From assembly GCA_030528445.1 (NCBI GenBank), contig JAUMYV010000001.1:5968-69967 (forward strand): a DNA stretch of 64,000 nt, read 5' to 3'. Positions within the stretch are counted from its first letter, which is position 1. Each line of letters starts with the position of its first letter. A program made the translations under genes and the position numbers. Positions 7,558-61,837 of the stretch are shown here, in pieces. Origin of the DNA: Porphyromonadaceae bacterium (lineage in GTDB: Bacteria > Bacteroidota > Bacteroidia > Bacteroidales > Porphyromonadaceae). A model generated the notes under the pieces. The model searched no databases, was not told the origin of the DNA, and saw only the letters and a list, made by a program, of their open reading frames with translations.

Positions 7558-9018
7558 TTATTGATCTAGCGATACATCTATCTTGGCGATCTTACGCGCC
7601 ATTTCTTTCTTGCCCTCTAGATCACTCTGTCGAGCGATCATGATGCGTTGCGCTTGAGGCGAACCTGCACCGTGCATACTCTCTGTACGGTAGCCCACAG
7701 CTGCTGTCCCGAGCGTGATGTTCTCGATTAGGCGAAGAATGCGCATGCGATTCTCGACGTGCTTGCCTTTGGCACCGACGAGGTACTTACGGACAACTGC
7801 CCCGAGCTTTGGATGACGTAGATCTGCCTCACTGGGCATGGTCACCATAATTCCACCTGCTATATCCTCGGCAAGGCGAGCGATCTCGTAGGGGAAGCGT
7901 GTAATATTTTGCTTACATACGTTAGCTAGCAGGAGGTCTACCATATAGTTGCCAGCCTTCATTTGCTTTCCCTCACTCGAGCAGGCGATACCACAGGCGT
8001 AGAGCGTCTCGTTCAGATGTGTCATCTCGATAATCTTGTCCTTGATGTGGGTTGCTTTGGGCACACCATTGTAGTCGGCAGCAAGAGCAGCAGCTCCAAT
8101 CAGCACGTCGCCTACACCGACCTTACAGCCTCCGTAGCTCTGGCGGTGGTAACCAGCGAATCGCTCTACCATCATGCCCGCAAATTGGTACTCACGACAC
8201 ATAAATACACGCTCGTTGGGGATGAACACTCGGTCGAAAACGACAAGTGCTTCGTGTCCTCCGAACTCTGTGTTCCCAGGATCAATGTCATGATACTCCT
8301 CGCTCTTGCGTGTATCGCAGCTCTGGCGGCCATAAATCATCAAGATACCCTCGGCATCGCTAGGACAAGCGAAAGAAACTGCGTAGTCGGAGTCCTCCTC
8401 GCGCATGGCGATGGTAGGCATGATCAGATGCTCGTGTGAGTTGACCGCTCCCGTTTGGTGAGCCTTGGCACCAGAGACGATGATACCATCCTCACGCACT
8501 TCGTCGATATGGAGGTACAAATCGGGATCTTCCTGCTGCGAAGGAGAGAGGCCACGGTCGCCCTTAGGGTCAGTCATCGCCCCATCGACTACTAGGTCAT
8601 TCTCCTGCACATACTTCAGATACTCGACAAATCGCTGGTGGTACTGCGTACCTAGCTCCTCGTCCATCTCGTAGGTGGTGGAGTAAATAGCGTTGAAGGC
8701 ATCCATCCCCACACAGCGCTGGAAGCACGATGCGGTCTTCTGCCCCAGTAGACGCTGCATCTTAACCTTGTTTTTGAGGTCTTCGGTGCTTTGATGTAGG
8801 TGACAGAATCGGTTGATGCGCTTACCTGTGAGGTTCGACACAGCAGTCATCACTTCTTGATGCTCGGGCATCTGCGCCAGTTCGTAGGTCATCGCTACGG
8901 AATTCATGGACGGACGAATGATAGGATGGTCTACTGGGTTTTCGATTTTTTCCCCCATAAACCAGACATTTAGGTTCATCTCCCTAAGGCTGTCCTCGTA
9001 CTCTTTTCTCGTCATCAT
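7558..9018 (-). CDS. abfD: 4-hydroxybutyryl-CoA dehydratase / vinylacetyl-CoA delta-isomerase
   Basis: 486 aa, 4-hydroxyphenylacetate-3-hydroxylase-like fold with CFQRC Fe-S ligand cysteines; first gene of the operon. Confidence 0.85.
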   Translation of the reverse strand: MMTRKEYEDSLREMNLNVWFMGEKIENPVDHPIIRPSMNSVAMTYELAQMPEHQEVMTAVSNLTGKRINRFCHLHQSTEDLKNKVKMQRLLGQKTASCFQRCVGMDAFNAIYSTTYEMDEELGTQYHQRFVEYLKYVQENDLVVDGAMTDPKGDRGLSPSQQEDPDLYLHIDEVREDGIIVSGAKAHQTGAVNSHEHLIMPTIAMREEDSDYAVSFACPSDAEGILMIYGRQSCDTRKSEEYHDIDPGNTEFGGHEALVVFDRVFIPNERVFMCREYQFAGMMVERFAGYHRQSYGGCKVGVGDVLIGAAALAADYNGVPKATHIKDKIIEMTHLNETLYACGIACSSEGKQMKAGNYMVDLLLANVCKQNITRFPYEIARLAEDIAGGIMVTMPSEADLRHPKLGAVVRKYLVGAKGKHVENRMRILRLIENITLGTAAVGYRTESMHGAGSPQAQRIMIARQSDLEGKKEMARKIAKIDVSLDQ

Positions 9019-9203: not shown

Positions 9204-9712
9204 AAATAATTTTAGTCTTGTCTGAATTTATTTCTGTCGCTTCATCACCCCTCTTCCCCAGGGTGGGAAACATCGCTTGTCATGGGCAGGTCTTCTGACT
9301 TCTCCTAGTTTTACGCCTTCCCGCTTGTCTGTAATAAGCCTAAGCAGTGGCATTGGGATGTAAAACTATTGTGTCTATTGGAGTTACAGCTGGGGGTACA
9401 GTCTCGGTCTTGCACCGAAGTTCCCTTTTAAGCCAATCGATTGACTACCGACTGATCACCTATGACAAGGGCAAAGATAGAAACAATTATAGAATAAAAT
9501 ACACAATTGATGCTTTTCCTGAATAAATTCTCTTGTCGATCTGTCTATTTCATCTTTACAATGGCTAAAATATAAACCTTATCCTAAGAGATTCCAGACA
9601 TTCTATCCTCTAGATCGAGTAAGGCGTATGATATGATACATGATGGCAGACCAAGGTCTGCTCTGAGATTGCTCTAGATAGAAAAAGGAGTTTCTCCAAT
9701 ATTCCTCTATCT

Positions 9713-11449
9713 TTGCTATCAGCTAATGTTGATAGGCTATTCTGTATGTACACTTTAGATAATTTTGACCAATTCATACCTCCTCGTATTCTCGAGCGAG
9801 GATGGGATTATTACAGGGCTGGAGCTGTTGATAGTCTTGAACAGCTGGACAAAAAAACTTGGAGCGCTTGGGTAAGCGGAACGGATGACTATGAAGTCGA
9901 GATTTCGCTCGCAGGGCGTAAGGTTCTAACTGCAGATTGCGATTGTCCATATGATGATACCTGTAAGCATATTGTGGCTGTTCTCTACGAGATTAAAGAA
10001 CACCTCAATGTCGTCGCTCCTGTCGTAGGCCTAGAGATCGTAGACCCTCCCACAGCACAACAAAAAGGACAATTGAGTCACCTAACCCGAGAGGAGCTAC
10101 TCTCTTTGGTCAGAGACTATAGCCAGATAGATAGGCACTTTACTCAGTACCTTAAGCGCAGATTATGCCCTACAGAGAGGTTGATTGGACTTTCGGATGA
10201 TCAATATCAGGCTATAGTACGTAAGATCTTTGAGGAACAAGCAGGGAGAGGGTGTGACAGCTACGACTTTGATTGGAGTGCTATATTTAGGCATCTCTAC
10301 ATTCTTAGGCGGCAGATCGACTCCCTATTCCAGCAAGAGCAATGGCGAGCTGTGCTGATTCTAGCTTTTGAGACACTGCGACAAATTGGCTGCAGATGGG
10401 AAGGTTGTTTACTCTATGATGATGACGTGTTCGATAGCCTTGACGAGCATCTCTCATGGGCCTATCCAAAGATTCTTGAGGTTTGCGATCGGATTAGTCA
10501 ATCCAATGATGCCGAGCGACTTCGCACATGGGCCTTGGCCTATGTCAATGGGATATATTATGAGACTCAATTAATACGAAATATCCATGGAGACTATGCA
10601 GATGAGGATTGGCTTTTTGAGGTACGTCGGCTACTTTCGTCCGAGGAAGAGGCTATTCAAGCTGTACGACTAAGTATTGAACAGGAAACTGATCCCTATC
10701 GTCAGACTTCGCATATACAGCACTTAGCTAAGCTCTATAAACAGCGTGGAGATATCAAGAGTCTAGATCAGCTCTACCACCAGTATATCCATATAGCAGA
10801 CATTCGCTTTGCTCTAGTTCAAGAACTAATCGACAGAAGGCTATATCAAGAGGCCATCAAACTCTGTAAGGAAAGCTCGAAGTACAGCGAAGATCCCACT
10901 GCGAGGTATTGGCAAACGAGATTCCTCGAGCTAGAGCTCGGTTGCTGGGAGAGATGCTCCAATGCTAGAGAGTGTATTCGGGTCTGTCGTGAGCTATTCT
11001 CTAGCTCCCGCGAAGCCCTCAAGTACTATAAGAAACTTAGGAAGCTTCTACCTCAAGCGGACTGGGAGGCTTTACGTCCCAAGCTGATGAAAAGTAAGCG
11101 GCTGAGCTATGAGGATCTAGTTTGGATTTACAAGGATGAAAAGTCCTACGACCAGCTATTTGACATCATTGATCGGTATAGCCATACGGGGCTTAACTAT
11201 CTTAGTGATGGGCGCTATTTGCCTGCCCAGTATGATGCTCGGCAATTGGCGTCACTAAGTAACAAGGTGCGCACTCTTGCCTCTGGGCAGGTTGATCGCA
11301 AAGGGTATCAGCTAGTAGCTAAACTGCTCTCCTATATGGCTCGGCTCTCAGGAGGTCGAGAGGTTGTTGCCTCTATATTATCGGAGTTTAGGATAAAGTA
11401 TCGGAGGCGACCTGCTATGCTTGACGAACTGAAGCGCGTTAAGGTCTAA
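9713..11449 (+). CDS. SWIM zinc-finger domain protein, otherwise uncharacterised helical protein
   Basis: 578 aa; CDCPYDDTCKHIVAV matches the SWIM CxCxnCxH signature. An alternative start at 9743 (MYTLDNF) is possible. Confidence 0.6.
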   Translation: MLSANVDRLFCMYTLDNFDQFIPPRILERGWDYYRAGAVDSLEQLDKKTWSAWVSGTDDYEVEISLAGRKVLTADCDCPYDDTCKHIVAVLYEIKEHLNVVAPVVGLEIVDPPTAQQKGQLSHLTREELLSLVRDYSQIDRHFTQYLKRRLCPTERLIGLSDDQYQAIVRKIFEEQAGRGCDSYDFDWSAIFRHLYILRRQIDSLFQQEQWRAVLILAFETLRQIGCRWEGCLLYDDDVFDSLDEHLSWAYPKILEVCDRISQSNDAERLRTWALAYVNGIYYETQLIRNIHGDYADEDWLFEVRRLLSSEEEAIQAVRLSIEQETDPYRQTSHIQHLAKLYKQRGDIKSLDQLYHQYIHIADIRFALVQELIDRRLYQEAIKLCKESSKYSEDPTARYWQTRFLELELGCWERCSNARECIRVCRELFSSSREALKYYKKLRKLLPQADWEALRPKLMKSKRLSYEDLVWIYKDEKSYDQLFDIIDRYSHTGLNYLSDGRYLPAQYDARQLASLSNKVRTLASGQVDRKGYQLVAKLLSYMARLSGGREVVASILSEFRIKYRRRPAMLDELKRVKV

Positions 11450-20515: not shown

Positions 20516-22180
<1,665 letters not shown>

Positions 22181-22509
22181 TCAAGAGACGCGCGAGTAAG
22201 GCATAAACCACCACAAAGTTACGTGATTATTTGCAAAGTGTCCTCGATTGAATTGATAAAATTGGAAGCCCTAATGCCCTAGGATTGTTAGATATTGCTG
22301 CGCTACTTGTCTCTATGATGCCTGTAAGTGAGGTGCAATCTGTTTGATATAGCCATACATTATAAAAATAGTTTTCCATCTATTAGCTATTTCTGGCTCC
22401 ATGGTGTAGCCATGCTGTGTGTCGTGGTGAAAAAGCGGAAAACTTCTATGTCTGTTTTTCGCGATTTTAGTTAAATTATGTGAATAAACTGAGGATGAGT
22501 GGAGGCATT

Positions 22510-22860
22510 GAGCGAACGATTTTGGGCGATTGGTTCGGCTTGGCAGAAAAATCTCTCAGAGTTTTTCTCGGATTGTAGGACTAATTCGCTGCGATGTGTG
22601 CACACATCCGGAAAGATTAGTGCACAGAAATTCTGAAATGATGGTCTTGCTTAGGTGAGATTAGGTTAGGTTTTATTTTATCTATTTAATTGTCAATTTG
22701 ATATAGATATGTGTTTTAACGGGCTGTTTTCATTCGGCTGGGACTAAGTACCAAAATGAGGTCGAACTCAATCTAGAGCCTTCTAGGGGGCAAATACGCG
22801 GTGTGCCATTTTTGACCCCACCCAAAGCATTTCCCTAATCAATATTCTGAATTCGCTTCG
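22510..22860 (+). repeat. Copy A of a ~300-350-bp modular intergenic repeat family; contains the perfect 16-bp palindrome GATGTGTGCACACATC at 22593-22608
   Basis: Two conserved blocks (…TTGTAGGACTAAT…GCGATGTGTGCACACATCCGGAAAGATTAGTGCACAGAAATTCTGAAAT… and …TTTTCATTCGGCTGGG…CAATCTAGAGCCTTCTAGGGGGCAAATACGCGG…TTTTTGACC…) shared with 37690-38060 and, in inverted orientation, 55250-55530. Confidence 0.6.
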
Positions 22861-23014
22861 ATTATATAAATCCCTAGTTGTTGTATTTGTGAATAATTGA
22901 TAACTTTGCCGAAAATCTGCAATATGTATTAGATGTAGCTGTAAGTGTGATTGTTATTTAGTGTTGTGGTTATTAAGTGTTTCTAATATAAAAATATAAT
23001 CAATCGGTATTTCT

Positions 23015-23515
23015 ATGAAGTTAATAAGTATCATGAGTCCTAAATCAATTATTCTATTGGTGCTGTCTGTATTCGTTTTAGGCGTGGTTGTCTCTTGTAG
23101 CGAGACAACGGATGTTCCCGCCGAGGCGATAGTGCGCAAGCTGTCTGTAACCAAAAAGGAGGCTCACTCAGGGGAGAAGGAAGGAATCCTCATGACTCCC
23201 CTGCCAAATGGGTTCGTTAGGTATGTGCATTATGGTATATTGGCTCCGATAGAGCTGCGTGGCACTCCTCATCTCGAGATTTCTCGAGTGGATCATAAGG
23301 TTACGCTCAAGGAGGTGTTCGTCGGCAACCCAGACGTCAATGGCATAGCGACCCATTATATAGAAGCCGAGCTTGGTGTTTTTGATATTGGGCACGAGTA
23401 CCAGTTCACTTTGCTTAATCACAAGGGTAAACGCATTCTAGACTCGACATTTCGCTACGGAGGTGTACTTGAGTTCTGGCACGAATTTCCCAAGCATCAT
23501 TCCTATTTGCCCTAG
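23015..23515 (+). CDS. hypothetical lipoprotein
   Basis: 166 aa with a signal peptide and a VVSC lipobox. Confidence 0.6.
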   Translation: MKLISIMSPKSIILLVLSVFVLGVVVSCSETTDVPAEAIVRKLSVTKKEAHSGEKEGILMTPLPNGFVRYVHYGILAPIELRGTPHLEISRVDHKVTLKEVFVGNPDVNGIATHYIEAELGVFDIGHEYQFTLLNHKGKRILDSTFRYGGVLEFWHEFPKHHSYLP

Positions 23516-34797: not shown

Positions 34798-34877
34798 GGT
34801 GATTGCGCCACAAAGGTAGGTAATTATTTCGATTGCGCAAGCTACACCGAAAATTGCAACCTCCGAAGTACCTAAAA

Positions 34878-34912
34878 GGGGCTGTGGCAAGATTCGATGC
34901 TGCCACAGCCCC
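34878..34912 (-). terminator. rho-independent terminator of the TonB-dependent receptor gene
   Basis: Perfect 12-bp stem GGGGCTGTGGCA…TGCCACAGCCCC followed by TTTT on the minus strand; related to the 11476 and 39899 hairpins. Confidence 0.55.
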
Positions 34913-34938
34913 TTCTGTTACTCAAAAGCCATAAATGC

Positions 34939-37284
34939 TTATAGCTTGTAGGATAGACCTATGCGGAAGTTAGTTGGTGTATTGGGAACCATTTGGTTGC
35001 CGAGCGCCTCTTGGTAGCTCTCGGTATTCATCACGTTGTACACGTTGGCACTTAGTCTCAGATTCTTCATGATCTGATAGGCGAGACCTAGGTCAAGTAG
35101 CGTATAGGCGGGGAAATGATTTTGTCTGATTCTGCGCTCTCCTTGATAGCTAAAGGCATAGTTTAGGCTCAAACTTTTGAGTAGTCCTCTCTGGATTGTG
35201 TATTCACCCAAGCTGTAAGCCTTATGCTTAGCAATACCATCGACAGCAGTGCCAGGTTTGATGATCCCGTCGTTCTCACTCTTCTTGCGATACTTGTCAA
35301 TCTGATTTTCTCCATACTTGGCATCCGTGTAGCTATAGCCGAATGAGAGGTTAAGCCCTTCGATAGGCATAAGTTTAGCCTCTGCCTCTATCCCCTGAGA
35401 AGTGATTTGACCAACCTGCCCAGTGAGTAAGTAATCCACATCCTTGCCATTGACCTGACGTATCTCTTTGCCGAGGCTAACGATGGTGTTGTTCTGGAGA
35501 ATATGATACACCGAGGCCGATAGCTCAAGCCACTTGAGTGGATTAGCTCGAGTCCCTAGCTCTATCTGGTAGCCACTGCGGGGCTTGAAGATGCCTACTC
35601 CAGGCTTCGTCTCGATCTCATTGCCATTATTGTCAATATAGATGCGATTGGGTCTAGAGAATGTGCGATCTGGGTTGAAGTAGTTGGCCACAGAGCTGTA
35701 CAGGCTTAGCTGCTTGATAGGCGTATAGACTAGACCAAATCGATAGGTCAGTGCCATATCGTTGGTTTTGTTGGGGTAGGTATCCACGTCTTCGAACGAA
35801 TGTTTGCCGTCGGTCACAGCGCGATCTGCAGAGGAACGGAAGCTATAGAGGTCATATCTAAGTGCTGTCATCGCCTGCAGTTGAGGGCTAAACTCCCAAA
35901 TATCCTGTACGAAGAAACCGCTAGATAGCGTGTGCGATGGGCTCGCTTGGCTAAACTTGCTCTTGAGTTCTCCTACACCTTTGGGCTCGTAGGCAGACAC
36001 GATCCAAGGAGGCGTAACGCCATACACATCGGGCTCGCTACCCTTGAGGTTATAGCCCTTGTAGGTTACTCGACGCATATAGCTGATGTCCGAGCCTGCG
36101 GTTAGGTTGTGCTTGATGAAGCCTGTGTAGAACTTAGCATCTAGAGTGAGCTGATTCTGGAAAGTCTTGGCGATATGCTCGAAGCGCAATGGGAAGGTAA
36201 ACTCCACACGGCTTAGGTCGATATACCGCTTCTTATCGCCCTTACCCTTGATGTAGTGGGCGTATTCTGTCGTCTCGCTTGTTACGTAGCTGAGATCCTC
36301 TGTACTGAAGTAGTCGATGTCGTCCCAGTTGGCAGAGGCATGCTCGACCAACTTGATTTGGGGGGTAAACGTGTGTACCCAGCGCACAGAGCCGTTTAGG
36401 TTGCGGTGGTACATGAAGTCGGAGCTATTGTTGTAGCGTACACTTCTGTTTTTACGAATACGCTCCTCTAGCTCTCCAGATTTGAGGTAGAGCTTGTCTC
36501 CTTGGGTTGTGTAGACGTCCTGCGACAAGGTAGGAGGTAGCCCTGCCTCGGTACCATAGAAGTCATTGTTGTGGCTCACACGGATGTCGAGCTCGTCCCT
36601 GCTCCATCGGCCATTGAGCGTACCATAGAGCTTGAGCGTCTTGTCTCCTAGATCTCTCCAGCCGTCCTCTCTAGTATATGTGGCTAGGAATAGTCCGCTC
36701 CAACCCGAGCCGAGGTAGTTGCCAACCAAGGCCGAGGCACGCATATAGTTCCAGCTACCATAGTTGAGGCTTGCCTCAATCTCTTTTTTTGCCTTAGCCT
36801 TACGGCGCACGATGAGCAGAGCACCGCCTACGGCAGAGTGCCCCTGTAGTACAGAGGCAGGCCCCTTGAGTAGCTCTAGGCTCTCTACCTCGCTCAGATC
36901 CGACAGAGGATAGGAGTTGAAGGTTGTGCGCTCGTCCCTCATACCATCTACAGAGATAGGAGCGTAGTCGAAGCCCCGTACGTTGAGCTGTAGAAATGCC
37001 CCATAGGTCTTACTGATGCCACTACCGCCACCGATGAAGCGGATGGCGTCCGTCGTGCGATAGAGATTTCGATTTTTGAGCTGATTGACCTGTAGGCTAC
37101 TGATGCTCAAGGGAAGTTTGTCCAGTGAGACACTGCTGCGGGAGATCTGTGGCTGAGCTCGTAGGTAGTCGGCCACAACCTCCACTTCGTTTAGCCTGTG
37201 GGTGGTGATGCTGTCTGTCTGCTCTTGGGCAACAAGTAAACTCGGAGCGACCAAGAGACCAAGGGATAGAATTTTCTTCATCAA
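34939..37284 (-). CDS. TonB-dependent outer-membrane receptor
   Basis: 781 aa with a signal peptide, plug domain and beta-barrel. Confidence 0.85.
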   Translation of the reverse strand: MMKKILSLGLLVAPSLLVAQEQTDSITTHRLNEVEVVADYLRAQPQISRSSVSLDKLPLSISSLQVNQLKNRNLYRTTDAIRFIGGGSGISKTYGAFLQLNVRGFDYAPISVDGMRDERTTFNSYPLSDLSEVESLELLKGPASVLQGHSAVGGALLIVRRKAKAKKEIEASLNYGSWNYMRASALVGNYLGSGWSGLFLATYTREDGWRDLGDKTLKLYGTLNGRWSRDELDIRVSHNNDFYGTEAGLPPTLSQDVYTTQGDKLYLKSGELEERIRKNRSVRYNNSSDFMYHRNLNGSVRWVHTFTPQIKLVEHASANWDDIDYFSTEDLSYVTSETTEYAHYIKGKGDKKRYIDLSRVEFTFPLRFEHIAKTFQNQLTLDAKFYTGFIKHNLTAGSDISYMRRVTYKGYNLKGSEPDVYGVTPPWIVSAYEPKGVGELKSKFSQASPSHTLSSGFFVQDIWEFSPQLQAMTALRYDLYSFRSSADRAVTDGKHSFEDVDTYPNKTNDMALTYRFGLVYTPIKQLSLYSSVANYFNPDRTFSRPNRIYIDNNGNEIETKPGVGIFKPRSGYQIELGTRANPLKWLELSASVYHILQNNTIVSLGKEIRQVNGKDVDYLLTGQVGQITSQGIEAEAKLMPIEGLNLSFGYSYTDAKYGENQIDKYRKKSENDGIIKPGTAVDGIAKHKAYSLGEYTIQRGLLKSLSLNYAFSYQGERRIRQNHFPAYTLLDLGLAYQIMKNLRLSANVYNVMNTESYQEALGNQMVPNTPTNFRIGLSYKL

Positions 37285-38433
37285 AATTGGTGAATTAATT
37301 GTTTTGGTTTCGTCTTAGTTTGTCTTAAAGATCGCACAAAGGTACGCCTTTTTGTCTGCATACCAATAGATTAGTTTTTGGGGGATAGAAGGCGATGCCA
37401 TTGCTCCTGCTATCATATCTCTATTGGGCTAGTTCTAAGCTCAGTATTCATCATGTGAGTAGGCATGGTGTATATTTTGGATAGATCTCTGTGGTAGCTA
37501 TGAGGGGGAAAGTGCATAAGATGTGTATAACTGGTGTGCATCATGAAAAATTCACTGCTTTACACATTCATTCTACTCGATAAGAGGCGGCGCAGCACGC
37601 GGCGTCGCTACCAACTGAAAACAATAGCCGAAAAAAACGAAGATGTTACAGATCGTTTCTCGCGGATTTGGTTAAAGTATGTAAACGAATTGGCTTCAAA
37701 CTGGGGCAAACGAATAGGTCATTTGGGCGGAATTGGTTTGACTGCGCCCAAAAACTCTAAGTGTTTTTGAGAAATTGTAGGACTAATCCCAGGCGATGTG
37801 TACACACATCCGAAAAGATTAGTGTAGAGAAATTCTGAAATTCTTGCTTCGCTCGGATAAAATCGGACTGAAATTCTTTTTAAATATTTGATTATTAGTT
37901 TCTTGTGAAAGATTTGTTTTAAGGCGTTATTTTCATTCGGCTGGGCCCCAAGGTGCCAAAATGATGTCAAACTCAATCTAGAGCCTTCTAGAGGCCAAAT
38001 ACGCGGTCTGTCGTTTTTGACCTCTCCCAAAGTATTTCTCTCATCAACATTCTGAAAAATGGTCTAAAATATAAATCTTGCTTATTGGCACTTATGTTCC
38101 AATCCTACCTTATTAGCTATTCCTTGTCGATACCTTGTGCTACTCTAGAGAGGTGTGGAAAGATTTTCTATGCAAATGGCGTAAGATGTTCATAAGTGCG
38201 CAATTAATAGATGTTGTGTGATGTGCATAACTCTGTCTATAACTTGTGGTTATTTTGTCTAATGATTGATTTTCAATGCTTTGTGATGAGATTATGCGAT
38301 GTGTATTAGTTGATATGTATAAAGTATTGAAAACAATAATGATATAGTTGGAACGAAAAAAACAAGCCAAAAAACGTTTTTTTCTTACCGATTTATTGGT
38401 CAACTTTGTAGGACGAAAAGAGTACAAAATCAT
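37285..38433. other. Candidate oriC: a 1.1-kb AT-rich non-coding region immediately upstream of dnaA with several near-consensus DnaA boxes and an AT-rich tract
   Basis: TGTGTATAA (37522, 8/9 match to TGTGGATAA), GTTATGCACA (reverse complement at 38225, 8/9), TGTGGTTAT and TGTGGAAAG. The stretch at 38280-38400 is very AT-rich. Confidence 0.4.
37690..38060 (+). repeat. Copy B of the modular intergenic repeat family, inside the dnaA upstream region; near-palindrome GATGTGTACACACATC at 37795-37810
   Basis: Both conserved blocks align with copy A at about 85 percent identity, with a variable AT-rich linker between them. Confidence 0.6.
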
Positions 38434-39873: not shown

Positions 39874-39898
39874 TACACAGATACCAAATACTCTACGA

Positions 39899-39934
39899 GG
39901 GGCTGTGGCAAAATTCGTTTTTGCTCGCAGCCCC
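39899..39934 (+). terminator. rho-independent terminator of dnaA
   Basis: GGGGCTGTGGCAAAATTCGTTTTTGCTCGCAGCCCC followed by TTTAT. Confidence 0.55.
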
Positions 39935-39940
39935 TTTATA

Positions 39941-40062
39941 GGTGTTTCAGAATGCGCAAAATGCAAGGCGCTAAGACTGAGGCTGACGGGAGCATACTCT
40001 AGTATGTGACCGAAGCCGAATGTCGTAAGCAACGCCGCAGTTTGTGCATTCTGAAACACCGT
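39941..40062. repeat. A ~120-nt element bounded by a 20-bp inverted repeat (GTGTTTCAGAATGCGCAAA … TTTGTGCATTCTGAAACAC); candidate structured RNA or small repeat
   Basis: The arms pair with one mismatch. The arm motif GCATTTTGYRCATTCTGA recurs at 57242-57256 (reverse complement) and 57388-57405. Confidence 0.3.
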
Positions 40063-49865: not shown

Positions 49866-51221
49866 TTAGAATCCAAACTTGCCGGGGAATTTGGGCATCT
49901 TCGGGAGCTTAGGCATCTTACCGCTGAAGCCCTGTAGTTGCTTCATCATCTTGCGCATCTGGGTGAACTGGTTAATCAGTTTATTGACCTCTTGCACGCT
50001 CGTGCCACTACCGTCGGCAATGCGCTTGCGTCGGCGACCATCAATGATAGACGGGCGCTTACGCTCCTCTGGTGTCATGGAGTAGATGATTGCTTCTACG
50101 CTCTTGAAGGCATTGTCATCCAGTTCGATGCCCTTGTTGTCGTTCATTAGCTTGCTTAACCCTGGGATCATTGAGGCAAGATCCTTGAGGCTACCCATTT
50201 TCTTGATTTGCTGTATCTGAGCGAGGAAGTCATTGAAGTCGAACTGATCTTTGGCGATGCGCTCCTCCAGCCTACGAGCCTCACGCTCATCGTACTGTTG
50301 CTGTGCACGCTCAACCAAAGAGATGATGTCACCCATGCCGAGGATGCGGTCTGCCATACGATCGGGATGGAAGACATCTAGAGCATCCATCTTCTCGCCT
50401 GTGCCGACAAACTTGATTGGCTTGTCTACGACAGATCGAATGGAGAGGGCGGCACCACCACGTGTATCACCATCGAGCTTGGTTAGGACAACGCCATCGA
50501 AGTCTAGACGCTGATTAAACTCCTTGGCGGTGTTCACGGCATCTTGACCTGTCATCGAGTCTACGACGAAGAGTGTCTCCGAGGGCTTGATCCCGGCCTT
50601 AATCGCTTCAATCTCGCGCATCATCTCCTCGTCGATAGCTAGACGACCAGCTGTATCGACGATCACGGTGTCGCACCCCTGAGCCATAGCCTCGGCGACA
50701 CCACGACGGGCGATGCCTACGGGGTCTTTGCTGTCTAGGTCGAAGAAAATAGGAACGCCAATCTGCTCGGCTAGTACCCTAAGTTGCTCGATAGCTGCGG
50801 GACGATAGACGTCGGCTGCCACGAGTAGCGGCTTGCGGCTCTGCTTCGTCTTGAGGAGGTTGGCTAGCTTGCCACTCATCGTGGTCTTACCAGAGCCTTG
50901 CAGACCCGACATAAGAATGATGGCTGGATGCCCCGAGAGGTTAATATCCATGGCCTTACCACCCATGAGCTCGGCGAGCTCATCGTGGACGATCTTGACC
51001 ATCAATTCTCCTGGGCGAACTGAAGTAAGCACATTCTGCCCAAGTGCCTTGACTTTGATTTGTTCGGTAAACTGCTTGGCTACATTATAGTTCACGTCGG
51101 CCTCTAGGAGTGCACGGCGCACATCTTTGAGGGTCTCGGCTACATTTATCTCGGTGATTTTGCCCTCACCTTTGAGGATCTTAAATGATCTCTCGAGTCT
51201 TTCGCTTAAATTTTCGAACAT
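49866..51221 (-). CDS. ffh: signal recognition particle protein
   Basis: 451 aa with NG and M domains and GLQGSGKTT. Confidence 0.95.
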   Translation of the reverse strand: MFENLSERLERSFKILKGEGKITEINVAETLKDVRRALLEADVNYNVAKQFTEQIKVKALGQNVLTSVRPGELMVKIVHDELAELMGGKAMDINLSGHPAIILMSGLQGSGKTTMSGKLANLLKTKQSRKPLLVAADVYRPAAIEQLRVLAEQIGVPIFFDLDSKDPVGIARRGVAEAMAQGCDTVIVDTAGRLAIDEEMMREIEAIKAGIKPSETLFVVDSMTGQDAVNTAKEFNQRLDFDGVVLTKLDGDTRGGAALSIRSVVDKPIKFVGTGEKMDALDVFHPDRMADRILGMGDIISLVERAQQQYDEREARRLEERIAKDQFDFNDFLAQIQQIKKMGSLKDLASMIPGLSKLMNDNKGIELDDNAFKSVEAIIYSMTPEERKRPSIIDGRRRKRIADGSGTSVQEVNKLINQFTQMRKMMKQLQGFSGKMPKLPKMPKFPGKFGF

Positions 51222-51279
51222 GAGCTTCTATCTCTTATGCCCCATACTCTCAGCCGTACCGAGAGTGGGCATCATACTA

Positions 51280-51630
51280 CTAAACGATTTGATTGGTAGC
51301 CGTATCGGGGAATACGACTGATGGCTTGAATCCCTGAGCCTCCTCGTAGGTCATCCAAGCATAGGCCATGATAATCACTATATCGCCTGGTTGTACCAAA
51401 CGAGCGGCTGCACCGTTGAGGCAAACGACTCCAGAGCCACGCTCGCCAGGTATAGTATAGGTTTCTAGGCGGGCACCATTATTGTTATTGACAATCTGCA
51501 CCTTCTCCCCAGGGAGGATATTGGCGGCCTCCATCAGAGCTTCGTCGATGGTAATGCTGCCGATGTAGCTAAGATTGGCCTCTGTGACGGTTACTCGATG
51601 TATCTTGGACTTAACAAGTTCTACTAACAT
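51280..51630 (-). CDS. panD: aspartate 1-decarboxylase
   Basis: 116 aa with a [21 protein letters not shown] pyruvoyl-precursor region. Confidence 0.9.
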
Positions 51631-53281: not shown

Positions 53282-53650
53282 ACTTATTCTAGCTTGTATT
53301 ATTTGATTTGTTTATAATCCTAATTATTAGCCCTGCAAAGGTAAGAATAAGTCATTATAAACCAAAAGCCTCTTCGGTTAGATAGGGCTAGGGAAGGGCT
53401 CAATCCTCCAGCAGTTTAACATCCGTGCCTGGAGTCTGCGCTTCCAATTTGGATACAAAATAATAACACACAAATTGCAGAGTCGCAAGTATCTCTGCAA
53501 TTTGTATGTCAGTGAGTTTTGACTCACTGTGTGACTTTCGACATTTGCTCCGCACGGATTTCGTCGTCGGGCTTGGTTATTGACATGAGCAAACTCCCTG
53601 CGCCCTCAGTCTCAATGTCTTGTGGTTGCCGCATGCTGCAAAGGTCTCTC

Positions 53651-54985
53651 TTATTGCTTTGGGGCAGTTTTGAAGTTGTACAAGAAAGGCTCGGTCGAGA
53701 TGCCGCGCTTCTTGTCTAGTCCAATCGCTATCAAGACATAGTCTGTATTGGGTCTCTTGGGCTTGAAGTACTTGTCCGTGAGCTCAGTAGTGCCTGTTTT
53801 GATAAGTTCATCGAGAGACTTGTGCTCGCGTTCGCCGTATATGCATTGTAATATCATATATTGCATAGCGGGAATGCCTTCGACCATTTCGTTAGCTTTG
53901 CTTTTGTTTAGGTAGTGGTCGACAAAGGTTTTTTTCTGGATGGTAATGTAGTAGCCGTCCGTGTTACTTGGTTTGAGGCTTCCGATCAGAGCACTTGATG
54001 TGATTTCCTTTTGTTCGAAGCTAAATGTATTGCTCGATGAGGTGTAGGGTTTGGATCTGAATGCAAACTCCTGGAGTCCAGTCGTTAGCTCTTTCTTCTC
54101 GTTGATGCCATAGCAGTAGACGATGTATTCGGTGTTTGGCCAAACGCACAGGTCGGAAGTGATGCCTTCGGAGAGCTTGCCTGTCTGTTTGCCTTTTGTG
54201 AGCGTACGCTTGAAGATCTCATCGCCGAATTTGCCCCAAAAAGCCATGTCTGCCTTGATAACATCGCCATGTCTTTGGTTAATTTCTTCGTACATAGATT
54301 TGCGCAGAATCGTGTAGATGTAGGTCATCTCTGGGTCGGGGGATTCGATGGTGAAGTCTCCGTCTAGAGCCTCAAGGTTGGATATAGTCACTTTGAATTT
54401 GGCTTCTGCTGCCGAGGTAACCGTTACTTCGCACTTAGCTTCATGGCCATGAGTGCTTGCCGTAATGGTGGTTTTCCCCTCCTTTAGAGCAACGACCTCT
54501 CCTTGGTTGACTGTGGCAACATTGGTGTCGCTACTCTTCCAGGCAATAGTAGCTGTGGCTCCTGCTGGCGCTAGAGTAGCTATTAGCTTGAGCTTTTCTC
54601 CCACCTTTATTTCTGCCGAATTTTTGTCTAGCATGATGCTTTCGATAGTCAGGGGCTGAGCCTTCACGGTTACCACGCAGACTGCTGTTGCCTTGCCACA
54701 TTTGGCAGAGATATTTGCAGTTCCTTCCTTGATAGCTTTAATCAGACCATTTTCGACGGATGCAACAGAGGGGGCACTGCTCTCCCAGAGAATTGTTTTG
54801 TCTACAGCATTTGCGGGCTTAACCTCCGCTTCCAATTGCACGCTAGCACCAACGCTTAGTGTGACGAGACCTTTGCTTAGAGCTATGCTCTCCGCTTCTG
54901 TGCGCACCTCCTCTTTTTCTTTACACATCGTCAGTGATGTGGCGCATAGCGTTAGGGCTACGAGCTGCTTCCAAATACCTTTCAT
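53651..54985 (-). CDS. surface lipoprotein with two bacterial Ig-like (Big_2) domains
   Basis: 444 aa with a signal peptide, a Cys lipobox and two Big_2-like repeats. Confidence 0.7.
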   Translation of the reverse strand: MKGIWKQLVALTLCATSLTMCKEKEEVRTEAESIALSKGLVTLSVGASVQLEAEVKPANAVDKTILWESSAPSVASVENGLIKAIKEGTANISAKCGKATAVCVVTVKAQPLTIESIMLDKNSAEIKVGEKLKLIATLAPAGATATIAWKSSDTNVATVNQGEVVALKEGKTTITASTHGHEAKCEVTVTSAAEAKFKVTISNLEALDGDFTIESPDPEMTYIYTILRKSMYEEINQRHGDVIKADMAFWGKFGDEIFKRTLTKGKQTGKLSEGITSDLCVWPNTEYIVYCYGINEKKELTTGLQEFAFRSKPYTSSSNTFSFEQKEITSSALIGSLKPSNTDGYYITIQKKTFVDHYLNKSKANEMVEGIPAMQYMILQCIYGEREHKSLDELIKTGTTELTDKYFKPKRPNTDYVLIAIGLDKKRGISTEPFLYNFKTAPKQ

Positions 54986-55249
54986 TGTTTATCTGTGTTT
55001 AAGTGTTTTTAATGTGAGAGCAACGCTTTGCTCTCGTGACTTGTATCAATGTCCAACAAATATAGCGAATAGGCTCTAGATTGACCAAATAAATTGGATG
55101 GAAATAAAGCTTGTGAAAATTCGTTGGAATTGTTGTGTGCAGAGGCTGTGATTTAAGCAAATCCATTGCTCGTTGTAGAGGTGGGTTTTTTGAAACAAAA
55201 ATTTGCACTTGTGTTGATGTTTGAAGGCCATGGTGATTGGCTTCGTCCA

Positions 55250-55530
55250 TTGGGAACCCCAAAAAGGCAGATCGCGTATTTGCCGTCTAAGAGCCTCTAG
55301 ATTGCGTTTGACCGCGTTTTGGCTCTAACCCCCTAGGCGGATGAAGATAGTCGCTCAAAACGAGCTGTTTGTAATTGATTGTTTTTCAGTTGGATAAAAT
55401 GTGTGTTTGGGGGCGTTTTATCTTGTTGAAGCATCCATTTCAGAATTTCTCTGCACCAATCTTTTCGGGTTTGTGTATACATCGCCGAAAATTAGTCCTA
55501 CAATCTCTCAAAAACTCTAATAGATTTTGA
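55250..55530 (-). repeat. Copy C (inverted) of the modular intergenic repeat family, pointing toward the Big_2 lipoprotein gene
   Basis: The reverse complements of 55441-55530 and 55255-55345 align with blocks 1 and 2 of copies A and B; the palindrome is degenerate here. Confidence 0.55.
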
Positions 55531-55847
55531 GGCAAGTCGGATGTGATCCTCAAAACTATCTCATCTTTTGCTTGAATTTTATAGTTGTTTTTTAACACTT
55601 CTTGGCGGTTGGTTTGTATTTTCGGTGTCAATGCCTCCAAGCTATTAAACATCAATTTGCTTTAATTTTTTAGGAAATGCTTGATTGTAATTGTAGAAAA
55701 GTTCCTTTGTTTATATATTTGCGACCTAAAAATCAGTATAATCCCAAAAATAGGTCAAAGAAAAATGGAGGGTAAAGCATCGTTAAACGGAGCTTCTACC
55801 TCGATTGATTCATAATAACTAATATTTACCTCGCAATCATCAGACTT

Positions 55848-57104
55848 ATGCACAGTAAACACCTTCTCTCTACTTTCGTTTTGGGGGCTATTCTGGTCTC
55901 TTCATGCACCAAGCAGGAGCCGTTGTCCCCGCAGACGCCTAGCACTCCATCAACGGAAGAGCCGCAAAAAGAGCAGCCAGCGACTCTATTCCCCAAGCCC
56001 GACAACTCTATTGAACTCACGGGCTATCCCGCCGAGAGGCTACTGAAGATACTCTCTATCCAAAAGATCGACCGAGTAATCGATCTAGGAGCAACGCGTA
56101 TTACGCAGGAGCAACTAGGCGAAATTAAAAATCTATCGGATCAGCTAGTCAAGGATAGTGGAGCAAGTACCCAGTTAGAGAAGCATCAGGTTCTCTTCAA
56201 ATGGATCACCTCAAAGGTCAAGTACGGGCATGTCTTTGATCCATCAATCCCCGACTTCAATAGCGCTTACTCAAGCTACAAGTACCAAAAAGCTATCTGC
56301 CAAGGCTATGCCAATCTGCTCAAAGTGATGTGCTACACCCAAGGCATCAATGCCCCTGTGGTCAATGGTCTGGCTAGATTCAATACATTAGGATCTCCCG
56401 CTGGGCATGCGTGGAACTATGTCCTGCTAGATGGGAAATGGCATGTCTCTGATCCGACGAATGGTATTTTCTACGAAGCCGATCGTAAAGATAAATTTAA
56501 TTTTCTCCTACCCGAGCGCTTGGACTTCGCACTCTGGCAAGACGATTATCTAACCTACATATATGAGAATCAAGAACTCACCGTAGGCGAAGTGCATGGT
56601 ACTGTGGCCGATGGTAAGCTTATGGTTCCCTACAGCATAGGAGGCATCCGCATCAGTAACTTTAACCCTACTTCCTTGCCCAAATCTGTTCGTGAAATCT
56701 ATCTGGGAATCAACATCAAGCACTTGGGTCTATCGGACAATCGTAGGCTACTACATATAGGAAGTGAGATCGAGAAGATCGCCATTGATCCCGAAAATAA
56801 GTATCTAGAAGATTTTCGCGGTAGTATCTACGAACGTGGTGAAAAGACGAGTAAGCTAATCCTAATCCCTGCGCGCCAAAAGAAGGTCTACCTCAAGGCG
56901 GAGAAAGAGATTGCCAAGAATACCCTCTATAATCACCTCGGTATAGAAGAGTTACATTTCTCCGAGGGAACTGAGGTAATCATGGATTATGCCGTGGAGA
57001 AGTGTCCTAGCCTCAAAGCAGTCTACGTTCCTCAGTCGGTCAAGACCATAGGTGCTAAGGCATTCGCCGAGTGCAGTCCAGAGCTCAAGGTCATTCGCTA
57101 CTAA
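55848..57104 (+). CDS. lipoprotein with a transglutaminase-like cysteine-peptidase core and a C-terminal BspA-type LRR segment
   Basis: 418 aa with signal peptide and lipobox SSC; CQGYANL…GHAWNYVLLDGKWHVSDPT is a Cys-His-Asp TGase-like core; the C-terminus has a SVKTIGAKAFAEC LRR_5-like unit. Confidence 0.7.
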   Translation: MHSKHLLSTFVLGAILVSSCTKQEPLSPQTPSTPSTEEPQKEQPATLFPKPDNSIELTGYPAERLLKILSIQKIDRVIDLGATRITQEQLGEIKNLSDQLVKDSGASTQLEKHQVLFKWITSKVKYGHVFDPSIPDFNSAYSSYKYQKAICQGYANLLKVMCYTQGINAPVVNGLARFNTLGSPAGHAWNYVLLDGKWHVSDPTNGIFYEADRKDKFNFLLPERLDFALWQDDYLTYIYENQELTVGEVHGTVADGKLMVPYSIGGIRISNFNPTSLPKSVREIYLGINIKHLGLSDNRRLLHIGSEIEKIAIDPENKYLEDFRGSIYERGEKTSKLILIPARQKKVYLKAEKEIAKNTLYNHLGIEELHFSEGTEVIMDYAVEKCPSLKAVYVPQSVKTIGAKAFAECSPELKVIRY

Positions 57105-57940
57105 GCAAGCCTTCGAGGCTGTAAGCAGATAACCCAAGCGTGTCGCAAGCCCAGAAATGGGGGTTAGCGACACGCTTGACTCGTTGATTATAGATCGACC
57201 AAAAAGTCGAAAAGCGCAGATAAACATCAGGTGGTGTGTCGGAATGCACAAAATGCTGTGTTGCTTGCGATATTTGCTCCGCACGGACTTCGTCGTCAGC
57301 CTCAGTCTTAGCGCCCTCTCCCGCACGATTGCTCGCCTCGGCATAGCTGGAGTAAACTCAGCTCTGTTCTCGGCTTACACAATTCTTGCATTTTGCACAT
57401 TCTGAGGCACCTAAAAAGGGACTGGGCAAAAGCGAGTTTTGCCAAAGGTCTCTTCAATTGGGATGTGCAAAGTGAATATATGATTACTAGGTGTTCTTCT
57501 AATCAGCCCCTAGTTTTTCATTTGATGCTTGAATTTGCTCTGCGTGGAGTTGAGGCCTGCTTTTTGCCCAAGCGGGCAAAAAGCAGTAATTTTGTGGGTG
57601 GCTATGGTGTCTCGATATGGGGCTTAATCGGGGGTAGGTGTAAGACCTGTGTAGACGGATGCGTTGCCGTGTATATGCGCTGGCATGCTCTAGAGGGTCT
57701 CTATAAGGCGGTATATTAGGGTGCTACCCTGTTCTGAGCCAGCGCAAAGCTTGCTCAAGGTAGGCTTCGGGTGTACTCTCTTGATGTAGAGAGTATTGGT
57801 TTCCGATGTCTTCCAATCCTAGTCCAATATATGCCCCTAATAAACCATTGACCCTTTGCCTCGGTGAAAGGTCAATGGTATGAAATCGGATGACCGGCCA
57901 ATCCCATAGTTGTCATGGGATACTTACGCGATAACGTGTC

Positions 57941-60306: not shown

Positions 60307-60356
60307 ACAGAGTAACATAACCACAATATAGCAACAAAGACAACTATTTATATCAA

Positions 60357-61694: not shown

Positions 61695-61837
61695 GCTTCT
61701 ATTGGCTAGACACTGTTGCGTGGGTAATACCGCGACCTCCAAATGGTGCCCCCAAAGAGGTTTGGTATTACCCCGCCAACGGCGTCCAAAAGACAAGATA
61801 AAAACAGAACTATTTAATTAATAACTAAGACCTCACT

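Follow-up and report, generated by a model that had tools for sequence, protein, structure and literature searches.

The BOX elements of S. pneumoniae and the ERIC/IRU elements of enterobacteria are non-coding interspersed repeats that possess an internal imperfect palindrome and have no known dedicated transposase and no classical ends. Each genome carries about a hundred or more of them, with a variable number of modules, usually in transcribed regions or 3' of genes; ERIC is about 127 bp in length and the BOX modules are 45-59 bp. The GTAG-tagged REPs mobilized by RAYT tyrosine transposases and the palindrome-associated elements derived from IS200/IS605 exhibit no terminal inverted repeats and no target duplications, and they carry GTAG 5' of a stem-loop (Di Nocera et al. 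2013, PMC3733652). REPs are 20-40 bp in length with loops of 2-20 nt, are abundant, lie mostly downstream of genes, and often form head-to-head dimers, and those of the GTAG type are unreported in Bacteroidetes (PMC3733652). P. gingivalis possesses the BrickBuilt MITE, an element with a 23-nt tandem minisatellite at its core and small inverted-repeat ends that is present in 19 copies per genome (Klein et al. 2015, PMC4596501).

The window (i.e., the whole 64-kb stretch of DNA that was analyzed) contains a previously undescribed non-coding repeat of ~450 bp that is dispersed in unrelated gene contexts. An nhmmer profile gave exactly three full matches in the window (copies A, B, and C), with no further copy, at the places where the first-pass annotation had noticed two copies and an inverted third; all three were confirmed, and their similarity is far beyond chance. 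Copies A and B share 76.3% identity over 342 bp (E 3.8e-63), and copies B and C share 70.1% identity over 271 bp (E 7e-28). The length of ~300-350 bp assigned earlier was too short, as the element also includes an extra 5' block and a conserved tail and extends over about 450 bp. On the basis of its similarity to B and to a copy in another genome (copy D, described below), copy A spans about 22427-22872 on the + strand (about 446 bp), begins with GTGAAAAAGCGGAAAAC, and finishes with ATATAAATC. It is located between pyrG (20516-22153, - strand) and the gene for a 166-aa lipoprotein (23015-23515, + strand). Copy B (about 37627-38077, + strand, about 451 bp) is located between the gene for a TonB-dependent receptor (34939-37284, - strand) and dnaA (+ strand), for which a start at 38491 is more likely than the previously indicated 38434 because homologues have 455-465 residues. 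Copy C (55261-55531, - strand) is more diverged and is represented by the core alone (block 1, linker, and block 2), with match segments of 83% identity over 93 bp, 74% over 101 bp, and 70% over 271 bp; its 5' block and 3' tail could not be aligned with the other copies. The flanking genes encode a Big_2 lipoprotein (53651-54985, - strand) and a transglutaminase/LRR protein (55848-57104, + strand). The copies are old, with an overall identity of 65-71% when gaps are counted as mismatches.

The element has a fixed layout of 5' block, block 1, AT-rich linker, block 2, and tail. All motifs that had been quoted for it are present, with ATTGTAGGACTAAT found at 22572, 37774, and 55491 (-) in copies A, B, and C, AGAAATTCTGAAAT at 22626, 37828, and 55437 (-), and CAATCTAGAGCCT at 22769, 37974, and, with one mismatch, 55292 (-). 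Upstream of block 1, at a distance of about 90 nt, a third conserved block is found (TTTTCGCG.TTTT.GTTAAA.TATGT). The 5' conserved block of copy A, GTTTTTCGCGATTTTAGTTAAATTATGTGAATAAACTG (22456-22496, + strand), shows 70-82% conservation across A, B, and D and has variable flanks. Block 1, where conservation peaks at 83-97% among A, B, and D, is an imperfect palindrome of ~95 bp at 22545-22640 (+ strand) in copy A and at 37747-37842 (+ strand) in copy B. In copy A it contains AAAAATCTCTCAGAGTTTTT, GTAG, the hairpin ACTAAT..GATGTGTGCACACATC..ATTAGT, and then CAGAAATTCTG, in that order. The 16-bp palindrome GATGTGTGCACACATC (22593-22608) is indeed perfect in copy A and matches on both strands, whereas the "one-step shift" described for the inner palindrome of copy B (GATGTGTACACACATC, 37795-37810) is in fact a single base change within the 4-nt center (GATGTG-TGCA-CACATC versus GATGTG-TACA-CACATC). 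The strings T-GTAG-G-ACTAAT...ATTAGT and TTGTAGGACTAAT...GATTAGT are invariant in A, B, C, and D, and GTAG is situated 1 nt 5' of a 6-7-bp stem. The linker that follows (22641-22712 in copy A, + strand) is AT-rich and variable; A, B, and D share 47-68% identity in it and differ by indels. Block 2 (GTTTTAACGGGCTGTTTTCATTCGGCTGGG ... CAATCTAGAGCCTTCTAGGGGGCAAATACGCGGTGTGCCATTTTTGACC) occupies 22713-22818 (+ strand) in copy A, with a weak hairpin and a T-run at its end, and 37916-38020 (+ strand) in copy B. The conserved tail finishes in ATATAAATC, where the 3' boundary is sharp; the boundary on the 5' side is fuzzy. The blocks are far better kept than the linkers, so that conservation is strongly patchy; across A, B, and D, windowed identity had a variance of 0.0195, compared to 0.0065 ± 0.0017 in shuffles, none of which (0/5000) was as high. 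No element motif was found elsewhere in the 64 kb apart from one isolated exact match, at 55071-55084 (- strand), to the best-conserved part of block 2, the 14-mer TCAATCTAGAGCCT. This 14-mer is positioned in the 21-nt spacer that separates TTTG from TATATTTG in the promoter-like site of the Big_2 gene, and it alone matches, its flanks being unrelated to the element.

Three of the four divergent intergenic regions in the window carry a copy, and all five copies that were located (A, B, C, D, and E) lie in such regions; weighted by length, the probability of this placement by chance is about 0.03 when only the window is counted and about 0.003 when all five copies are. The first-pass annotation had emphasized that each copy points at the next gene. 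This statement is true but uninformative, as all three copies are situated between divergently transcribed genes and either orientation would then face a gene start. The real regularity is placement in divergent intergenic regions rather than orientation. According to Pfam, the neighboring genes are functionally unrelated (pyrG, lipoprotein, TonB-dependent receptor, dnaA, Big_2, and LRR/T9SS proteins), and at least one neighbor of every copy encodes a surface or exported protein.

Of the features that would reclassify the element as a MITE, shared terminal inverted repeats were looked for with a negative result, and no target-site duplication was visible. No pair of terminal inverted repeats around the four full regions was common to the copies, and the sole conserved inverted repeat of at least 8 nt that emerged when A, B, and D were scanned column by column was the central palindrome. 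The ends of the element, of which the 5' one is fuzzy, bore no visible direct repeat. The size of about 450 bp, the non-coding nature, and the several dispersed copies are MITE-like traits. Pfam searches revealed no transposase or recombinase among the 41 larger ORFs of the window (a set that excludes three large ORFs at 59053-63355 and the smaller ones), and no transposase, recombinase, or RAYT/TnpA gene was found in the flanking loci that were fetched. The only tandem arrays detected by TRF were trivial (5-10 nt, scores of 30-35). The "brick-like" label given to the element earlier is appropriate in the broad sense that the repeat is dispersed, intergenic, and lineage-restricted, but it does not extend to BrickBuilt itself, as no 23-nt tandem array or shared inverted-repeat ends were present. 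Like BrickBuilt (PMC4596501), the element is found in the same genus, is strictly intergenic, modular (leader, body, and tail in BrickBuilt), and limited in its hosts, and lies near gene starts; it differs in having few copies in addition to lacking the array and the ends. Conserved modules, a large imperfect internal palindrome, and the lack of a known dedicated transposase and of classical ends are shared with BOX and ERIC, which resemble the element in appearance and in the way they work and from which it is distinguished by its few copies, its longer unit, and the lack of sequence similarity. The GTAG next to a stem-loop, itself unpaired, is reminiscent of REP/RAYT, although a 4-mer may occur there by chance. 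Unlike a REP, the element is a 450-bp unit present in few copies, and its 44-nt hairpin, which encloses a 29-31-nt interior, lies within this unit. REPs and MITEs usually lie downstream of genes, and the location of the element, always between divergent promoters, is just the reverse.

As judged from the genomes and reads in which matches were found, the family is confined to a small canine-oral Porphyromonas clade that comprises the MAG of the window, COT-290, and a few relatives represented only in read archives. An exact-pattern scan of 185,579 representative genomes yielded one real locus and two chance matches; the real locus is the intact copy D, the only one in this set, in Porphyromonas sp. 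COT-290 OH3588. The core motif had no match in the representative genome of P. gingivalis by pattern scan, nothing real was found in the JGI metagenomes (one chance 25-mer) or, by distant blastn, in plasmids and phages, and two scans of viral contigs found nothing. The copies beyond the window are D, E, and F, and each genome possesses 1-3 intact copies. The non-orthologous pairs A-D and B-D are 75-76% identical by blastn, as similar as A and B are to each other. Copy E (L013, 8975-9405) adjoins pyrG in OH3588 with the same position and polarity as copy A; it is decayed, scoring 74 bits compared to about 450 for an intact copy, and has lost the palindrome and the T-run. Different DNA is present at the pyrG site in COT-290 OH860. 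Recombination between D and E as the source of the OH860 arrangement is not shown by the data because the OH860 sequence matches L002 (70-234) at a distance of 2.4 kb from D. In relatives with pyrG 87-92% identical, panD-ffh-pyrG-yidC are contiguous without the element, and copy A therefore sits at a synteny breakpoint. No precise empty site was seen; the relatives that lack the element show a rearranged locus. The genome of L012 (85% nucleotide identity) has a partial variant upstream of dnaA that is different from copy B, with a block 2 that is closer to that of copy A than to that of copy B, and colinearity with the window is lost about 75 nt after the end of copy B. In a sister species, four independent assemblies all break about 45 nt after the position of the element. 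Contig breaks can also come from strain variation. Copies have been gained, lost, or decayed differently in sister genomes, and they coincide with synteny breakpoints and assembly breaks.

Copy B had been placed at the replication origin, and this assignment is not established; the copy is upstream of dnaA, but no flip of the GC skew occurs at this point. A more distant relative (L010 and L011; DnaA 67% identical) has secA upstream of dnaA and lacks the element there. DnaA-box-like 9-mers are present at 37522 and 38222, next to copy B but outside the element. Neither conservation upstream of dnaA in relatives nor boxes inside the element, as would be expected for an oriC component, was found. 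Motifs of the GATGTGTA type occur in the element and near dnaA, but they were rejected as boxes because their match to the DnaA box is partial and relatives lack the element in the dnaA region. Copies A, B, and C all face dnaA, for which the chance is 1 in 4; an orientation relative to replication was dropped as an idea for this reason and because the GC skew places no origin there.

We consider the element to be a new interspersed repeat of mobile origin that lacks terminal inverted repeats, and we hold this interpretation with about even confidence. It would most likely represent selfish DNA, or DNA that was once mobile, whose insertion or survival is limited to the gap between two divergent promoters, and the conserved blocks may be the parts recognized by the machinery that copies the element or by a host protein. 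Any extant mobilizer would not be a classical DDE transposase, since terminal inverted repeats and target duplications are lacking. By analogy to REP/RAYT and IS200/IS605, an enzyme of the HUH/Y1 type acting on a hairpin in single-stranded DNA would be the most natural, if speculative, candidate. Counterpoints to mobile origin are the low copy number and the age of the copies, the lack of shared terminal inverted repeats and of a visible target-site duplication, the lack of a transposase or recombinase gene in the scanned ORFs and flanks, and the failure to see a precise empty site. Furthermore, selection for a host function that requires at least one copy per genome would explain equally well why the blocks are preserved in non-orthologous copies across two species and why E has decayed, and the restriction to gaps between divergent promoters may hint at a regulatory role. 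A more elaborate version seems decidedly unlikely. In it, the element would be a new kind of non-autonomous mobile DNA for Bacteroidota that lacks terminal inverted repeats and is copied via its nested GTAG hairpin by a single-strand-specific HUH/Y1 enzyme, in a manner related to REP/RAYT; it would be targeted to the negatively supercoiled DNA between divergent promoters, in which the 95-bp palindrome could extrude, and at least one copy per genome would be kept intact through co-option as a protein-binding module or an RNA.

Several other explanations start from the position of the copies. The leading proposal of the first-pass annotation was a shared promoter and 5' leader, with a palindromic operator, that drives the gene at which each copy points. 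The block 1 to block 2 direction does face a gene start in every copy, but this outcome is unavoidable in divergent regions, and the genes have Bacteroidetes-type -7 boxes (TAnnTTTG) of their own outside the element. The -7-type box of the lipoprotein gene, TAACTTTG, is at 22901-22908 (+ strand), the TAnnTTTG box of the Big_2 gene is at 55064 between the element and the start codon, and those of the divergent genes (22214 and 37337) are on the opposite side of the element. Within the element, linker included, no TAnnTTTG box is conserved between copies. The box of the next gene is found at a distance that varies from about 30 to about 320 nt, and a leader would be terminated at the T-run that closes block 2 before reaching the gene. 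A role as the core promoter of the neighboring genes is not supported, and we regard the promoter/leader proposal as very improbable. An invertible promoter of the Bacteroidales type (an inverton) for phase-variable surface proteins would be consistent with the surface or exported protein encoded beside every copy, with the assemblies that break at the edge of the element, and with a perfect 13-nt inverted repeat, 645 nt apart, that brackets copy D. This repeat is not shared by the other copies, however, so that no inverted repeat flanks the element in all of them; in addition, there is neither an internal promoter box nor a nearby recombinase gene in the scanned ORFs and flanks, making an inverton extremely improbable. 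We view as unlikely a cis-acting, protein-bound module, perhaps a domesticated repeat, in which the palindromes of block 1 and the TCTAGA-centered motif of block 2 would function as operators or as an insulator. Such a module would account for the exclusive location between divergent promoters, for the near invariance of block 1 in sequence beyond pairing (asymmetric flanks included), for palindromes that fold equally on both strands, and for the exact 14-mer in the promoter-like spacer of the Big_2 gene. It accords poorly with unrelated neighboring genes, with the variable distances to promoter boxes, with the decay of E at the pyrG site without loss of pyrG, with relatives that lack the element at the same genes, and with motifs that are found nowhere else in the 64 kb save for that single 14-mer; moreover, 450 bp is very long for an operator.

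Other readings concern what the element itself might encode. A structured non-coding RNA, as also suggested earlier, received no positive evidence and is only weakened, given the 4-5 sequences at hand. The RNAalifold covariation term was +0.19 kcal/mol, the power of so few sequences being low, and the number of stem pairs changed on both sides (2, from four sequences) is indistinguishable from the 1.0 ± 0.7 in shuffles, of which 115/500 were as high. No Rfam family matched the elements at the gathering threshold, and only noise was obtained at E <= 10. Hairpins exist, yet the folding energy is ordinary, with single-sequence z-scores between +0.4 and -2.3 for both strands and between +0.4 and -1.4 for block 2, which is no better than shuffles. 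A more specific possibility, which we consider unlikely, is that the copies are genes for a trans-acting sRNA, with block 2 (about 100 nt) being the RNA, which would end at the hairpin and T-run, block 1 its palindromic operator upstream, the linker the site of its promoter, and spare copies decaying as long as every genome retains one or more intact copies. The T-run, preceded by a weak hairpin, follows block 2 in A, B, C, and D and is terminator-like in copy B, where a terminator scan identified a site at 37992-38019; the same scan flagged nothing at the end of block 2 in copy A. Consistent with an sRNA, the blocks are conserved and the linkers are free, OH3588 retains the intact D while E has decayed, and the one-sided stem changes that keep pairing are all G-U on the + strand. 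In contrast, block 2 shows neither covariation nor unusual stability, conservation among A, B, and D continues for about 60 nt beyond the T-run, and the missing TAnnTTTG box applies to this promoter as well. A conserved GTTTTAAG in the linker was rejected as an sRNA promoter, since it departs from TAnnTTTG and two decayed copies fit that consensus better than the intact ones. As the first-pass annotation stated, no ORF is conserved between copies. Copy D has a 68-aa ORF on the + strand and copy B has a similar frame with two stops, as might be left by the decay of a protein-coding gene or by a pseudogene array. Copy A, however, is frameshifted, the frames being broken by stops and a 1-nt indel, and the variable positions, including a 5-nt spacer, affect all three codon positions, which led us to reject the coding interpretation. 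A six-frame chimeric query had no match at E <= 1 among 5.8 billion called proteins, and a coding ancestry is scarcely credible.

If the assignment as an interspersed repeat of mobile origin is right, the element adds one more lineage-specific repeat to a genus already known for such repeats. Its value would then be chiefly practical. It would account for the assembly breaks upstream of dnaA and pyrG in canine-oral Porphyromonas, would mark synteny breakpoints, and would warn annotators against promoter or origin labels. Less ordinary are the strict placement between divergent promoters, the cross-species conservation of blocks in non-orthologous copies, and a GTAG-tagged hairpin in a phylum without described REP/RAYT repeats of the GTAG class. 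Should any of these traits reflect a function or a new route of mobilization, OH3588 with its single intact copy would offer a simple test system.

The window also contains an unrelated MITE, at 39941-40060 and 57233-57411. It resembles the element in being intergenic and in occurring in the same genomes, but differs in having 20-nt terminal inverted repeats (GGTGTTTCAGAATGCNCAAA), a length of 120-180 bp, and a location downstream of genes. A link between the ATTCTGAAA motifs of the element and the terminal repeat of this second repeat (CATTCTGAAACACC) was rejected, as only 9-10 nt are in common and not in all copies. The presence of this MITE indicates that the clade does harbor mobile repeats, and in OH3588 one of its copies adjoins copy E.

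The three similar intergenic stretches recognized in the first-pass annotation proved to be homologous by blastn and by an nhmmer profile, and are referred to here as copies A (∼22427–22872, + strand), B (∼37627–38077, + strand), and C (core 55261–55531, − strand). By blastn, A matched B with 76.3% identity over 342 bp (E = 3.8e-63) and C with 82.8% over 93 bp plus 74.3% over 101 bp, while B and C were 70.1% identical over 271 bp (E = 7e-28). The profile of A, B, and C returned exactly three full-length matches in the 64 kb, with the rest at or below noise. Every motif quoted earlier was located in the sequence and the 16-bp palindrome of copy A is perfect, but the proposed unit length of 300 to 350 bp was too short; alignment with a fourth copy extended it to ∼450 bp. 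That copy, D, was the one real locus obtained when 185,579 representative genomes were scanned for an exact pattern of the block 1 core (TGTAGGACTAA, 34–50 nt, AAATTCTGAAA). It lies in Porphyromonas sp. COT-290 OH3588 (fetched locus L002, 2684–3150), whose CTP synthase is 97% identical to that of the window, and it shows 75 to 76% identity to A and B over 430 bp, comparable to A versus B. Loci fetched by neighboring genes yielded a decayed copy E (L013, 8975–9405; 74 bits versus ∼450), which sits beside pyrG in OH3588 with the position and polarity of A, and a partial block 2, copy F (L012, 1–134), at a contig start upstream of dnaA in a relative with 96% identical DnaA. A protein from an NCBI MAG labeled "Porphyromonadaceae bacterium" matched the CTP synthase of the window at 100% identity, and a read-archive assembly (SRR24915846) was 100% identical to the window across 14.7 kb. 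Nothing real emerged from JGI metagenomes, viral contigs, plasmids, or phages, and the RNA, plasmid, phage, and viral libraries searched contained no match. The repeat is real and previously undescribed.

Its modules keep a fixed order: a 5′ block (TTTTCGCG.TTTT.GTTAAA.TATGT), a variable stretch, block 1, an AT-rich variable linker, block 2, and a tail terminating in ATATAAATC; copy C is reduced to block 1, linker, and block 2. Block 1 is a ∼95 bp imperfect palindrome in which AAAAA(n)CTCTnAGAGTTTTT and ATT-GTAG-G precede a nested hairpin (ACTAAT / 5–7 variable nt / GCGATGTG-NNNN-CACATCCG / AAAG / ATTAGT), and GCAGAGAAATTCTGAAAT comes after it. The palindromes of A and B differ by a single base within the 4-nt center; the inner stem of C is broken, but in this copy the TTTTCGG of the variable spacer forms pairs with the conserved CCGAAAA. 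Block 2 contains CTAGAGCCTTCTAG and GGCAAATACGCG..TGCC, followed by a T-run. When identity among A, B, and D was measured in 20-column windows, the two variable stretches reached 42 to 58%, block 1 83 to 97%, and block 2 75 to 90%. Because this patchiness was matched by none of 5000 column shuffles, the blocks are under some constraint, from either element propagation or the host.

Copies A through E all lie between divergently transcribed genes. The annotated orientation of each copy toward the next gene is true but uninformative as a rule, since in a divergent region either orientation faces a gene start. Only 4 of the 42 intergenic gaps in the window are divergent and three of these hold a copy; the length-weighted chance of such placement, with elements removed, is ∼0.03 for the window and ∼0.003 for all five copies. 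The placement is non-random, and opposite to that of REP elements and the second repeat family of the window, which lie downstream of genes. The fourth divergent gap, the only one without the repeat, holds a cobalamin riboswitch (9268–9478, − strand, 85.7 bits). About 250 nt downstream of this riboswitch, with a small ORF between, is an HpaB-family gene (7558–9018) of the 4-hydroxyphenylacetate 3-hydroxylase/4-hydroxybutyryl-CoA dehydratase type, an unusual gene to find after a B12 riboswitch. A 578-aa ORF (9713–11449, + strand) with only a SWIM zinc-finger match is the sole + strand gene within a long − strand housekeeping run.

The suggestion that the repeat is a shared promoter and 5′-leader module was not borne out and is now highly improbable. 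The −7 boxes (TAnnTTTG) of the lipoprotein gene (22901) and pyrG (22214) lie outside A, that of the TonB-dependent receptor gene (37337) outside B, and those of the genes around C (55064 and 55721) outside C; no box of this Bacteroidetes type is conserved within the repeat, and the spacing from the repeat to the box of the downstream gene varies from ∼30 to ∼320 nt. That the repeat is a cis module bound by a protein and set between divergent promoters is unlikely, at perhaps one chance in six. Two observations hint at it: the near-invariant sequence exceeds what pairing needs, and the best-conserved portion of block 2 recurs as an isolated exact 14-mer, TCAATCTAGAGCCT, with unrelated flanks, in the spacer of the promoter-like site of the Big_2 lipoprotein gene (55057–55090, − strand; TTTG, 21 nt, TATATTTG). 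A trans-acting small RNA, which block 2 would encode up to the T-run under control of block 1 as its operator, is similarly improbable; it would account for the retention of at least one intact copy per genome, and a terminator scan found the T-run site terminator-like in B only. Rfam searches of the window elements gave nothing at the gathering threshold, and A, B, and D gave noise alone at E ≤ 10. Folding z-scores of blocks 1 and 2 ranged from +0.4 to −2.3 on either strand, and the RNAalifold covariation term of the aligned copies was +0.19 kcal/mol. In the hairpins that recur, pairing holds in 92% of cells, but 20 of the 37 pairs are invariant; changes on both sides occur in two pairs, which is no excess (115 of 500 shuffles reach two; with four sequences the test is weak). 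A structured RNA is thus unsupported rather than excluded. The repeat is non-coding. As the first-pass annotation held, no ORF is conserved: stop codons break the frames, as does a 1-nt indel in A. Within block 1, the variable spacer of 5 nt alters all three codon positions, and a six-frame query of 5.8 billion called proteins gave zero matches at E ≤ 1. A pseudogene is very improbable.

Comparison with relatives pointed to turnover. Of the two OH3588 copies, D is intact and E has decayed; with gaps counted as mismatches, A is 45% identical to its positional counterpart E, versus 68% and 71% for the non-orthologous pairs A–D and B–D. The order panD-ffh-pyrG-yidC is contiguous in relatives with pyrG 87 to 92% identical (L015, L019–L026), whereas in the window ffh and panD (49866–51630) are separated from pyrG (20516–22153) by ∼27.7 kb (22154–49865, including dnaA), which means that the window lineage and COT-290 underwent a rearrangement. 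Copy A lies at the pyrG edge of this interval, a synteny breakpoint. The genes beyond E in OH3588 are unlike those beyond A, and the sequence upstream of pyrG in OH860 changes completely after 126 nt. That OH860 DNA (L014, 268–434), read in reverse orientation, shares 92% identity with L002 70–234, which lies 2.4 kb from copy D; it belongs to a further repeat family or else marks a strain-specific rearrangement that joined the two loci. At the dnaA locus, a genome with 85% nucleotide identity loses colinearity at window position 38152, ∼75 nt past B, and its block 2 there is closer to that of A (76%) than to that of B. In a sister species (DnaA 84% identical), 4 of 4 independent assemblies begin ∼45 nt past the position of the repeat; these breaks reflect either strain polymorphism or a repeat that has one or more assembly k-mers in common with another copy elsewhere. 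Copies that are differentially gained, lost, and degraded at rearrangement junctions, all inside a narrow clade, behave as interspersed repeats of mobile origin do. The earlier assignment of copy B to the replication origin did not hold: DnaA-box-like 9-mers lie outside B, no GC skew sign change occurs around dnaA, leaving an origin there unconfirmed, and a relative with 67% identical DnaA has secA upstream of dnaA and lacks the repeat. A role as an oriC component is accordingly most doubtful. The longest dnaA ORF starts at GTG 38434 (479 aa); since homologues span 455 to 465 aa, ATG 38491 is the more likely start.

We favor, at about even confidence, the view that this is a new non-coding family of interspersed repeats, specific to its lineage, that lacks terminal inverted repeats and has a mobile origin. 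Divergent promoter gaps would either tolerate such a repeat or be its target, and the conserved blocks would be its recognized parts. No terminal inverted repeats common to the copies were found, which contradicts a MITE, and the copies share no flanking inverted repeats, making an inverton very unlikely. The 41 larger window ORFs scanned with Pfam are ordinary housekeeping and surface-protein genes with no recombinase among them, three large ORFs at 59053–63355 and smaller ORFs lying outside that scan. With no terminal inverted repeats, no visible target duplications, and a GTAG directly 5′ of its conserved hairpin, the repeat is reminiscent of REP/RAYT and IS200/IS605-type elements, which may hint at how it moves; however, it departs from the REP definition in size, copy number, and location. 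BOX and ERIC are its nearest analogues in behavior and architecture, and BrickBuilt the nearest within the genus, but it belongs to none of these. The "brick-like" label is apt for a dispersed intergenic family, but the tandem 23-nt array of BrickBuilt is absent. The findings to date call for no new mechanism; the unusual placement and block-wise conservation make the repeat worth further study.

A second dispersed repeat, unrelated to the A–F family, occurs at 39941–40060 and 57233–57411, with a partial copy at 53527–53573. It is 120 to 180 bp long with clear 20-nt terminal inverted repeats (GGTGTTTCAGAATGCNCAAA) and is a canonical MITE-like element, lying just downstream of dnaA, the 418-aa transglutaminase/LRR gene, and the Big_2 gene; in COT-290 OH3588, another copy (L013, ∼9596–9751) separates copy E from pyrG. 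At 34876–34914 and 39897–39930, directly after the TonB-dependent receptor gene and dnaA, are near-identical GC-rich hairpins (GGGGCTGTGGCA ... TGCCACAGCCCC) that look like a shared intrinsic terminator family that is possibly bidirectional.
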